Below, piece after piece: positions 33,301 to 36,300 of a stretch of DNA of 64,000 nucleotides; the stretch's first letter is position 1, and each line of letters opens with the position of its first letter. A program made the position numbers. This DNA is from Escherichia coli (GTDB lineage: Bacteria > Pseudomonadota > Gammaproteobacteria > Enterobacterales > Enterobacteriaceae), in the NCBI RefSeq assembly GCF_030013595.1, contig NZ_CP122768.1. One strand, written 5' to 3'.

Positions 33301-36300
33301 GGTTCTGGCAGATAATCAGGTATTCATCCAGATAAGATTTTATATTTTTGTTTTTTTTCACTCCCCCGAACAACTCCAGCTTTTGGGAGTTGGGGAAGTA
33401 TTTTGCATATTCGAAGGTACCATCGATAATCTGATTTTTTATTTCTCCCAGCAGACGCTCGGCGTACTTCACACCGCGCGCGTTTACTTCCATTCTGGAG
33501 AGGGGCTCCCGACACAGAACCCCTTTATATGTAAAAGTGATAACCAGAGTGCTACCAGTTTTATGCTGCCGAATAGTTACTCCTCTAGGGAGAGATAATG
33601 ATCCTTGTTCTTTCTTGCCCATTTTGTAATCTCCATTAAGTCGACCCAACGTTCTTTAACTCCGTCGACTTTTAATACATGTACCCCTTCTTTCCATATT
33701 CCTCTTTGTATCCGTTTGTTAACGGCATCAACCGTTTCTCCTGCGTTGCGGCAGTAGGTTGATATAGGTACGCAATCCAGCCCCACAGTTCACCTCACAC
33801 AACATTCAGCCCACGGCAGTGGCACCACACTTCAAACATTCGCCTCACAACTTCACGACAGTAGAAGCCGTCAACGTCTCGCGTCAGGTCATAGCGATTG
33901 CCGTAACGCTGGCGTACCCATAGCTCAAATGCTTTATTCATTCTCTATTTCCTTTTCATGGCTCGTAATTTTTTCAGATGAGCTTCCAGCTCTGTTTCTG
34001 CCAGAATTTGTCGGTATTCCTGGTGATCTATCCGTTCAAACGATTCATTAAAATCGCTTATTTTTACAGATTGTGTTCGCCCATCCATTCTTCTGTACAA
34101 CACAGTGTTGTTTATGCAGCGAATAATTTTTATCGGGTAACCGGCACTGTCGGTATACAGTTGCCCTTGATTAATCAAAGCGAACATTTTTTCTCCTGCT
34201 CTCTGAATAGTGAGAACTTCAGAGCCGTATGTTTGTAGCGGGTTCAATACTGATAATTTCTGCTGAGATAAGCATCCCGGCAAGCCAGAGTTCTCCGGAC
34301 AGGTCTTCATCCTGACATATCAGTTCGCCAATATTAATGGTGGCCATGATATCTGTTTCCCCTGTGCGCTCATCCTCGACTTCTTCATAAGGCAGCGTTG
34401 CGTACAGGCTTTCAATAGCGCAACTGATAACATCCAGTCCGGTCAGATTGCCGCCGACAGTAACTTCGAATGTTTCGCGGTATTCCCATAGTCCGAAAGT
34501 TAATCGAACGGTTTGTTTTGCCATGCGTCCGCATGACGTCAGATTCGGATCATAGTTCATTATTTGCGGTTGGGTATTATGGGTGTTCATCTGCTTTTCC
34601 CTTAGCCCGGCAGGTCGCCGGGCATATAAGTTATTTAACCTGGATAAATGGTGTACTGGCGCCGCTGGTCATGTATTGCGGCAGTGTGCCGTTCCATTTA
34701 TTGATGGCTTCCAGCTCCATAACACCGGGGTTCTGGCGCAGAGCTTCACCGCGTAAACGAATAGCATCGGCTTCAGCCTGGGCTTTTGTGCGAATCGCAT
34801 CAGCCTGTCCGGCAGCTTCCGCGCGCAACATGTTGGCTTCCGCTTCGCGCTGTTTAACTTCCTGCTCGCGCTGCAGTGTTTTCTGGTTCGCCGTGACTTT
34901 GGCATTAATGCTGTCGATAACGGTTGGCGGGTACTCCGGCTTACCCACATATGAGAGGCTCATTACCTGAATACCGATGGGCGTCATTTCTGCCTGAATG
35001 TCTTTAAGAGCTGCATCCAGCAGTTCAGACTTGCCGCCGTCGATAAATTTGTCGGTGGTCATTTTGCTGGCCAGTCGATTGAGTGCGTCGGCGATCTTTT
35101 GACGCAGGTCGGTGTCGGTAATGTCATCCACGCCTTTGCGGTAGGTCTGAAACACCGTGGTAACTTTGGATGGGTCAACTTTGTAGGCCACGCCGATGTG
35201 ATAGCCGATGGTTGTACCGTCACTCATCTGGAAACTGAACGGTTCATCGTAGGTCTTCATTTGTTTGAAGGTCGGGAAGATGTAAACTTCAGTATTCCAG
35301 CCGGTCCAGTAGCGGCCAACGCCAACCACTTCACCGACGCCTTTGTCGTCGCCCAGTTTATTTACCTTGATGCCAACATTACCTGGTTCAACGCGATCGC
35401 AACCGACAAGGCCAATGGTCGGAAGAACAATGGCTAAAGCAAAAATAACTTTTTTCATCTTTTACCCTTAGTGAAAGAAAGACCCTTGTAAATGGCATAA
35501 ATGCAGGGCGGGGTCAGAAACGCCAGTGCAAAGCCGGAAATGACTGCTACCGTATCCTTCATGGATATAAGGAACGGGACGAGTAGTCCGTAAATGCATG
35601 CGATAATTGCCAGTAAAATTACTATTCTGAAATACAATCTCATTGGTTTGTTGCATCCCGATATTTTTAACTGACTGACAGCGCAATAAAGAGAATAATG
35701 ATTTCTGTTAGTGTCAGTACTGTGGCAAGGATTAAAAGCAGTTTTACTCTGCTTAATTCACGGTTGCTTTTCATATAAACGGTTAGTAAAAAACGGAAGA
35801 ATTATATTCTTCTTAATATTTAATGTGTCACTGGCGCTTCTGGCATACCATGAGTATTCAGATCGTGAATCATTTCATCCAGAAGGAGTTCAAGCTCTTC
35901 GCGCCCCATAGCAGAGACAATGAAACCATTATTAGGATCTGCGATGAGCATTTTTTGATAGAGAAACAGAACTCGCCCCATGCCTTCAGCTTCACCATAT
36001 TTTTCAATAAATCCCCATTCGACATGGTTTTGCAGGGCAATGCGAAGTGGTCCTGGGTATATACTCATGCAACCATGCTTCCCCTTATAAATAACTGCGC
36101 GATCTGTAGTTCCGTTATCGTTAGGGATATCAATGGTGCCGTTCTTGTCTTCCACTTCACTGATAAATTTCGCTACATATAGCCAGCGCCACTGGGCAAC
36201 CTTCATATCGACTGAAAATTTGCCCAGCAGTCCGGCATCATCAGCTTCTGCAATACATTGCATGATTCTTAACCCGTGCCAGTATGGATTATCGTATTCA

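Follow-up and report, generated by a model that had tools for sequence, protein, structure and literature searches.

A predicted SPFH lipoprotein paired with a small two-helix membrane protein in a phiP27-like prophage of Escherichia coli and in diverse other phages

Described SPFH systems and the prophage pair

The SPFH systems closest to the gene pair reported here are the bacterial HflK/HflC complex (PDB 7vhp, 7wi3 and 9cz2) and the mitochondrial prohibitins PHB1/PHB2 (PDB 8rrh and 9o9z). The pair lies on the minus strand of a prophage within a 64,000-nt stretch of Escherichia coli DNA (contig NZ_CP122768.1 of assembly GCF_030013595.1, hereafter the window), and encodes a 275-aa SPFH (Band_7) protein with a lipobox and a 62-aa protein with two transmembrane (TM) helices. 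HflK and HflC share with the phage protein an anchor, an SPFH core, a long coiled coil and a C-terminal tail (about 290 aligned columns in Foldseek), as well as the outward, periplasmic orientation predicted for it. However, they are anchored by a TM helix and work as a K/C heteropair, whereas the phage protein carries a lipobox, is the product of a single SPFH gene, has a two-TM partner and is phage-borne. Prohibitin, which forms a dome with its SPFH part facing outward and is a partner of an FtsH-type AAA protease, has topologically the same orientation and is both the best structural and the best profile match of the phage protein, but it is a eukaryotic mitochondrial, TM-anchored heteromer with only about 15% identity to it. 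The SPFH-NfeD operons, represented by QmcA-YbbJ, also couple an SPFH gene to the gene of a small membrane protein. In the phage, in contrast, the partner is a 62-aa hairpin without an NfeD domain, and while QmcA faces the cytoplasm, the phage SPFH domain is predicted to be periplasmic.

Phage SPFH genes have been annotated repeatedly, and genome papers have left their role open. The pair of phage Moo19, annotated as "similar to N4 gp19" and "similar to N4 gp20", represents the same two families in the same order and with the same overlap, a likeness to N4 that is taken from the deposited Moo19 annotation. In Kayvirus, a virulent phage, a small membrane-protein gene (mbpV) is immediately upstream of the SPFH gene mbpS (PMC7150955). 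MbpS differs from the protein studied here in its low identity (about 25%), its TM anchor, the lack of a lipobox and its location in the lysis region, and MbpV in having one TM helix and in not being detected by the hidden Markov model (HMM) that we built for the partner family. In the literature that we searched, SPFH proteins were connected with phages or prophages only in genome reports, in the discussion on Kayvirus, in a speculation on Bruynoghevirus and in a paper on the Pasteurella protein PM0222. Nothing relevant on gp19, gp20 or HflC of phage N4 was found there, and phage SPFH genes are not mentioned in the CRISPRi-ART paper, in a phage transposon-mutagenesis preprint or in a survey of Pseudomonas aeruginosa SPFH proteins. 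The Bruynoghevirus paper states that the role of SPFH "is still not clear", since lytic phages encode it (PMC8540360). The searched literature held no functional study of the phage pair, which agrees with the original prediction that the function of prophage SPFH modules is not established, and neither the partner nor the natural fusions presented below are described in it. What is new here is a phage-borne SPFH scaffold, predicted to be lipid-anchored and periplasm-facing, that is paired with or fused to a dedicated hairpin other than NfeD.

Fold, membrane anchor and partner of the prophage SPFH protein

The SPFH gene (34631..35458, minus strand; named "SPFH domain-containing protein" in RefSeq and homologous to L05 of phage phiP27) follows the partner gene (35455..35643, minus strand; N4 gp19-type according to the deposited annotation), and the stop of the latter and the start of the former overlap in an ATGA (35455-35458, minus strand), an arrangement that we read from the sequence as translational coupling. 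This confirmed the two open reading frames (ORFs) and the overlap proposed in the original prediction. The larger product matched phrog_200 ("lipoprotein", 5.5e-114) and the smaller one phrog_1130 ("membrane protein", 1.5e-23). Among related IMG/VR loci, all phiP27-like and 97-100% identical, all alleles of both genes were intact, and the mean ratio of nonsynonymous to synonymous substitution rates (dN/dS) was 0.026 for the SPFH gene, against 0.153 for that of the partner. On the basis of the PHROG matches, the intact alleles and the low dN/dS, both ORFs are genuine genes and not chance ORFs.

The 275-aa product is a true full-length SPFH protein. The Pfam profile PF01145 (Band_7) matched it with E=8.2e-31 over model positions 2-176 of 176, the envelope covering residues 22-208 (34835..35395, minus strand), and the beta/alpha core was modelled by AlphaFold2 (AF2) with a predicted local distance difference test score (pLDDT) of 92-98. 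For this model we used as input a concatenate of the 62-aa and 275-aa proteins, mimicking the natural fusions, and a 150-row alignment that included paired and fused homologues. The resulting structure (mean pLDDT 91.2, predicted TM-score 0.73) consisted, in concatenate numbering, of a hairpin (2-26 plus 31-55; pLDDT 86-93), a signal helix (61-79), the SPFH core (82-237) and a long helix (240-304), and ended in a short helix and a low-confidence tail, with low pLDDT in the last 20 residues of what is a monomer model. The long helix corresponds to residues 178-242 of the SPFH protein (34733..34927, minus strand), so that the Ala/Glu/Arg-rich tail that had been proposed to be a coiled coil was modelled as a single helix of 65 residues. 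In Foldseek it aligns with helix CC1 of HflK/C, of prohibitin and of erlin, and this long coiled-coil helix is the element that forms the walls of SPFH cages. Further towards the C-terminus, a W-N-G-x-L-P motif (34679..34696, minus strand) contains three residues, W255, G257 and P260 (W317, G319 and P322 of alignment A1), that are at least 90% conserved in the 150-row family alignment.

When the model was compared with the PDB, the Foldseek matches were full-length cage subunits (prohibitin, HflK/C, erlin, stomatin and flotillin) aligned over 240-305 columns with a probability of 1.00. Prohibitin was the best match (8rrh, E 1.8e-13), followed by HflC/HflK (7vhq, E 4e-13), and QmcA of the QmcA-YbbJ complex was matched too (8z5g, E 2.8e-7). 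Profile searches gave the same picture, the family profile reaching prohibitin-1 at 3.7e-10, HflK at 1.7e-7, QmcA at 1e-6 and HflC at 2e-5. The single 275-aa sequence matched HflK only at E=1e-3, with residues 114-240 aligned to HflK residues 180-306. Orthology with HflK/HflC was considered and rejected, as the protein scored 24.7 bits against the HflC model TIGR01932 of NCBIfam (cut-off 134.4) and 22.7 against the HflK model TIGR01933 (cut-off 159.4). Scores so far below the cut-offs, together with the weak single-sequence match, indicate that it forms an SPFH subfamily of its own and is no orthologue of HflK/HflC, which weakens the comparison with these host proteins in the original prediction; the family profile is slightly nearer to prohibitin than to HflK. 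Since every solved full-length SPFH protein matched by Foldseek forms a ring or cage, the phage subunits probably assemble into one as well through their long coiled coil.

The N-terminus of the SPFH protein reads MKKVIFALAIVLPTIGLVGC, followed by DRVEPG after the lipobox cysteine. This signal peptide with a lipobox LVGC (Cys20) and Asp at +2 (35399..35458, minus strand; read from the sequence) fits the pattern [LVI][ASTVI][GAS]C and, with the profile and fold searches, bears out the proposal of an SPFH-like lipoprotein. The cysteine (C82 in alignment A1) is at least 90% conserved across the 150 family members, fusions included, and the Asp at +2 is present in five homologues from enterobacterial phages and in that of Burkholderia phage phi1026b. 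According to the "+2 rule" of E. coli, Asp in this position keeps a lipoprotein in the inner membrane. We therefore predict that the protein is lipidated at Cys20 and retained in the inner membrane, and cleavage and lipidation of the N-terminus would leave the whole SPFH part in the periplasm.

The 62-aa protein has hydrophobic segments at about residues 1-29 and 32-48 and basic residues at either end and, as expected for the two-TM protein that had been predicted upstream of the SPFH gene, was modelled by AF2 as a helical hairpin. An alignment of 28 partner and fusion sequences disclosed a motif in the inter-helix loop (P23-F-L-I-S-M-K-D30; 35554..35577, minus strand) with the family consensus P-x-[LM]-[IV]-S-x-x-[DS]. 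The partner HMM gives the window ORF 76 bits, and this ORF has the features that define the family: about 60-85 aa, two TM helices, the loop motif and a position upstream of, or fused to, an SPFH gene. The NfeD relationship implied by the original prediction was not sustained: a Pfam scan listed no NfeD (PF01957), its matches being weak and unrelated (the best to DUF6320, at E=0.042), 62 residues are too few for an OB fold, and a PDB sequence search gave no match at E<=10, YbbJ included. Its size, its two TM helices and its basic tail would be compatible with a class II holin, but no holin family was matched in Pfam or PHROG.

Linkage of the two genes among phages

By tblastn, we found SPFH homologues in 668 of 50,697 phage records. 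These include strictly virulent lineages (N4-like Schitoviridae, Vequintavirinae, Erwinia Kolesnikvirus, Caulobacter giant phages and Staphylococcus Kayvirus) as well as Pseudomonas Bruynoghevirus, whose lifestyle is debated in the literature (PMC8540360), Lak megaphages and haloarchaeal tailed viruses. Identity of the pair was 62-73% in the virulent N4-like phages and about 49% in Vequintavirinae. A library of representatives at 50% identity contained 225 SPFH clusters at E<=1e-30 and 969 at E<=1e-10. Homologues were also present in 612 plasmids, 593 of them non-mobilizable and 63 corresponding to Yersinia records, with sizes of mostly 93-112 kb among the examples listed; these sizes and hosts fit P1-like and SSU5/pHCM2/pMT1-like phage-plasmids, types in which the presence of the partner was examined in Cyrano and one P1-like record only. 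Homologues of about 79% identity are found in Yersinia plasmids with a size that fits pMT1/pFra (for instance NZ_CP084340 of Yersinia pestis, 100,977 bp), in Salmonella plasmids with a size that fits pHCM2 (for instance NZ_CP029889, 106,706 bp) and in many Enterobacterales plasmids of 106-112 kb, and homologues of about 92% identity on plasmids of 93-99 kb, the size of P1-like elements.

We surveyed the partner in 17 diverse phage loci by translating the neighbouring genes. A two-TM protein of 60-85 aa with the loop motif was encoded directly upstream of the SPFH gene in 11 of them: P88 (P2-like), Fraca (HK97-like), a P1-like phage, Cyrano, KpCHEMY26, Moo19, Pseudomonas phage 5400, Vibrio phage CKB-S1, Burkholderia phage phi1026b, Rhizobium phage LG08 and the window itself. 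The spacing of the two genes in all of these besides the window went from a 20-nt overlap to a 3-nt gap. In SSE121 the partner was one gene further upstream, and in the Bruynoghevirus Pae-1 the partner HMM picked out an ORF that is missing from the annotation, about 430 nt before the SPFH gene; at this site (fetched locus 1160-1519, plus strand) the record annotates an ORF on the opposite strand instead. The partner gene is likewise unannotated in the P1-like record MH445380 (fetched locus 3775-4011, minus strand). In total, 13 sampled lineages carried the partner upstream of the SPFH gene, adjacent or no more than two genes away, and the HMM had a single hit in each locus, which in every case either preceded the SPFH gene or was part of a fusion with it. 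The SPFH genes of Kolesnikvirus, Caulobacter, Ochrobactrum, Kayvirus and Halorubrum viruses are more distant, and the other small TM proteins encoded near them were not recognised by the partner HMM. The backbones sharing this linkage are P2-, HK97-, P1-, SSU5- and N4-like phages, Vequintavirinae and phages of Pseudomonas, Vibrio, Burkholderia and Rhizobium.

Moreover, partner and SPFH protein were fused in frame, with the partner N-terminal, in 18 of the 150 best representative clusters (50% identity), and two of these fusions were verified as uninterrupted genes, both on contigs of phage-like character. One cluster showed the reverse order, with the partner module downstream of the SPFH part. 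In most of the fusions that we inspected, a third hydrophobic helix is retained and ends in a lipobox-like motif with its cysteine. That the two genes are fused in some clusters and kept close together on unrelated backbones argues strongly for a joint function of their products, and the conservation of the lipobox cysteine, fusions included, suggests that fused precursors are processed to the same two pieces. The fusions also bear on topology: they would place the C-terminus of the partner and the N-terminus of the SPFH signal peptide on the same, cytoplasmic side, so that the conserved loop of the partner would face the periplasm, where the SPFH domain is predicted to sit. In agreement with the positive-inside rule, we consider the hairpin to be N-in/C-in. 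It may contact the SPFH protein and probably acts as the transmembrane part of the assembly.

On a metagenomic phage-like contig, a gene two positions upstream (218-520, plus strand) of a fusion gene (710-1807) had a Pfam match to the Acb2/Tad1 hairpin, a family of sponges against CBASS and Thoeris. This neighbour is a hint that counter-defence or accessory regions are among the places where the module can occur.

Prophage setting and possible roles

The element that carries the pair is a phiP27-like prophage, and its prophage origin, already proposed in the original prediction, was corroborated. Several E. coli chromosomes contain the region with 100% identity, and the Stx2e phage phiP27 (AJ298298/NC_003356), in which L05 is annotated and the small 62-aa ORF is not, with 95.9% identity. 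In E. coli ETEC1732, which has the identical region, the order annotated by RefSeq leftward on the minus strand is a CI-like repressor of the LexA family, a helix-turn-helix gene, several small genes, a 212-aa gene, the pair, DUF5406, DUF4222, a xis-like gene and int, which puts the pair between int/xis and the repressor gene (37703..38395, minus strand; ETEC1732 locus 11304-11996, offset +26399). A consensus scan placed a terminator-like hairpin at the end of the CI transcript (37662..37680, minus strand), just upstream of a pL-like sigma-70 promoter, TTGACA-17-TATTAT (37607..37635, minus strand), that matches 11 of 12 consensus positions and is about 2 kb upstream of the pair. Between its -35 and -10 hexamers there is an operator-like perfect palindrome, AATAGGT-AA-ACCTATT (37605-37627), and a 23-nt copy of this operator with 78% identity is found in the cI-cro intergenic region (38465-38487). 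A pL under repressor control has this layout. In contrast, the scan disclosed no promoter-like or terminator-like site beside the pair on its own strand, and in the 6-kb region there were 6 promoter-like sites versus 11.2 in shuffled sequence. The pL-like promoter probably drives a leftward early operon containing the pair, and the operator it bears, together with the lack of signals belonging to the pair itself, leads us to infer that the two genes are off in the lysogen and switched on by infection or induction. The pair of P88 is among early-region genes between cox and the replication gene, that of Fraca immediately precedes xis and int, and that of the P1-like phage the helicase gene; virulent phages have it among genes for DNA metabolism or RNA polymerase.

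The flanking genes, DUF5406 (123 aa; 34219-34590, minus strand) and the hypothetical 212-aa gene (35820-36458, minus strand), matched neither NCBIfam nor PADLOC. An unannotated ORF of 35 aa with a single TM segment (MKSNRELSRVKLLLILATVLTLTEIIILFIALSVS; 35667..35774, minus strand) ends 23 nt upstream of the 62-aa gene. In 49 related loci it was represented by 23 alleles with zero internal stops and a dN/dS of 0.48, which indicates weak constraint; it was not seen in other phage backbones, being confined to the phiP27-like lineage, and is a possible third small membrane protein of the locus. Left of int the window is not collinear with ETEC1732, which has there a P4-like satellite remnant. In the window, this side carries a 1256-aa autotransporter of the AIDA/Ag43 type (28361-32131, plus strand), a 215-aa fragment with the same repeats (27429-28076, plus strand) and, further left, a gene of the YpjCB family (25168-26622, plus strand) and a tRNA-Met (24336-24411). 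On the other side, ETEC1732 has an ompC porin paralogue annotated between the Q antiterminator and a DNA methyltransferase (locus coordinates 1211-2308), whose place in the window would be about 44930-46030 (minus strand), as predicted by the offset from ETEC1732 only, and further right a tRNA-Gly; ARAGORN finds a tRNA-Gly in the window at 49443-49517.

We tentatively favour, giving it somewhat less than an even chance, the explanation that the pair forms an SPFH ring with an associated hairpin on the periplasmic face of the inner membrane and acts on a membrane client early in lytic development. The 275-aa product would be exported, lipidated at Cys20 and held on that face, where its coiled coil would close the subunits into a ring or dome above a patch of membrane. 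The hairpin, made in step with the SPFH protein, would supply the membrane-spanning "fence" that is beyond a lipid anchor by itself, and scaffold and hairpin together would then correspond to an HflK- or prohibitin-type subunit divided over two proteins. Transcription from the repressor-controlled leftward early promoter would restrict its action to infection or induction, as opposed to the quiescent lysogen, and by walling off or capturing an inner-membrane client the ring could alter the turnover of membrane proteins or the stability of the membrane. The most plausible client, a speculative choice, would be the FtsH protease, which we rank first because HflK/C and prohibitin, the other outward-facing SPFH cages, enclose FtsH-type proteases; to our knowledge, FtsH is present in the bacterial hosts of all the phages concerned. 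Several points weigh against this explanation. Lipidation, localisation, oligomerisation and partner binding are predictions drawn from sequence and fold. The similarity to HflK/C is no greater than that to prohibitin, and the scores fall more than 100 bits short of the NCBIfam cut-offs for HflK and HflC. Haloarchaeal viruses, too, have distant SPFH homologues, and their hosts are not known to possess FtsH. The residue at +2 is S, T, G or A in the non-enteric homologues, and in the phage protein itself an Arg at +3 may weaken the retention signal of Asp at +2. The promoter and terminator scans were of the simple consensus type, which a weak internal promoter could escape. Finally, PM0222 of a Pasteurella prophage, a probable relative, was present in cultures that had not been induced, as well as in outer-membrane vesicles (PMC9872710).

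Among the alternatives, an early exclusion of superinfecting phages or protection of the envelope, in which scaffold and hairpin would block the entry of secondary-phage DNA or shield the inner membrane, is unlikely, though the likeliest of them. The predicted site is the interface of inner membrane and periplasm that incoming DNA must cross, the pair belongs to early operons of both temperate and virulent phages, and its neighbour in Moo19 bears the annotation of a superinfection exclusion protein like gp17 of P22. Imm and Sp of T4, early-expressed proteins of the inner membrane or periplasm, offer a functional parallel, and the phage lipoproteins Llp, Cor and Ltp are classic exclusion effectors. 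Such proteins, however, are usually specific and fast-evolving, whereas the SPFH gene has a dN/dS of 0.026 and is distributed across podo-, sipho- and myoviruses with different entry routes; moreover, no defence family of PADLOC-DB 2.0 matched either protein at E<=1. The membrane-based exclusion by a resident prophage that the original prediction had contemplated is disfavoured, since expression in the lysogen is not expected from a repressor-controlled operon in which the pair lacks a separate promoter and terminator. A decidedly improbable role is the control of lysis timing, by which a holin- or antiholin-like hairpin, or the true holin, would be sequestered or organised by the SPFH ring and kept from premature collapse of the membrane. 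General class II holin features in the partner (small size, two TM helices, N-in/C-in topology and basic tail) speak for it, as does the location of Kayvirus mbpS and mbpV between the endolysin gene lysK and tgl, where MbpV "resembles holins" (PMC7150955). Yet the Kayvirus partner is not detectably of the same family, the pair is in an early operon and is not beside lysis genes in most of the sampled phages, and in the ETEC1732 annotation the lysis cassette (two holin genes and an M15 endolysin) is in the late region, about 14 kb away.

Regulation of the lysis-lysogeny decision, the other role raised in the original prediction, would have the pair act in temperate phages in an Hfl-like manner on a CII/CIII-type factor via FtsH. 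Its expression from a pL-like early-left operon, the operon in which lambda places cIII, and its HflK/C-like fold and orientation speak for this idea. However, the pair is also found in strictly virulent N4-like phages and Vequintavirinae, so lysogeny control is not the general function of the family, and, the protein not being an HflK/HflC orthologue, we regard this role as very unlikely. Least probable of all is lysogenic conversion, that is, a surface or vesicle lipoprotein that aids the host (through virulence or TLR2 stimulation) or a defence function that the resident prophage expresses. The case for it comes from Pasteurella multocida, where the prophage "HflK/C-like" SPFH protein PM0222 (25-35 kDa) was found in outer-membrane vesicles and its deletion attenuated virulence (PMC9872710). 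Against it are the absence of the moron signature of an own promoter and terminator, the repressor-controlled operon, the wide presence in virulent phages, the lack of PADLOC matches and the Asp at +2, which argues against outer-membrane sorting in E. coli.

Beyond the window, it is conceivable, although we think it unlikely as a whole, that many unrelated phages, both temperate and virulent, build early in infection their own HflK/prohibitin-like cage, with a lipoprotein SPFH subunit and a hairpin as its parts, on the periplasmic side of the host's inner membrane, some of them from a precursor cut by LspA at an internal lipobox, and use it to capture or wall off FtsH or another inner-membrane machine. 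If true, this would be a general viral strategy to control membrane-protein turnover, and the lipobox-containing fusions, if cleaved, an unusual polyprotein route to a membrane complex. If FtsH is targeted, or a membrane patch organised, by the early SPFH ring and hairpin that we favour, the pair would represent a widespread and overlooked step of host takeover as well as a tractable handle on SPFH cages. The module is carried by the N4-like model lineage, by Shiga-toxin phages and by P1-like and pHCM2/pMT1-like phage-plasmids and, even if dispensable in the laboratory, it would rank with the commoner accessory modules that Enterobacterales phages carry without a characterised function. What bacterial SPFH proteins do in the cell is poorly defined, and this pair offers a minimal SPFH system in which a defined partner is inherited along with the scaffold and purifying selection is strong.

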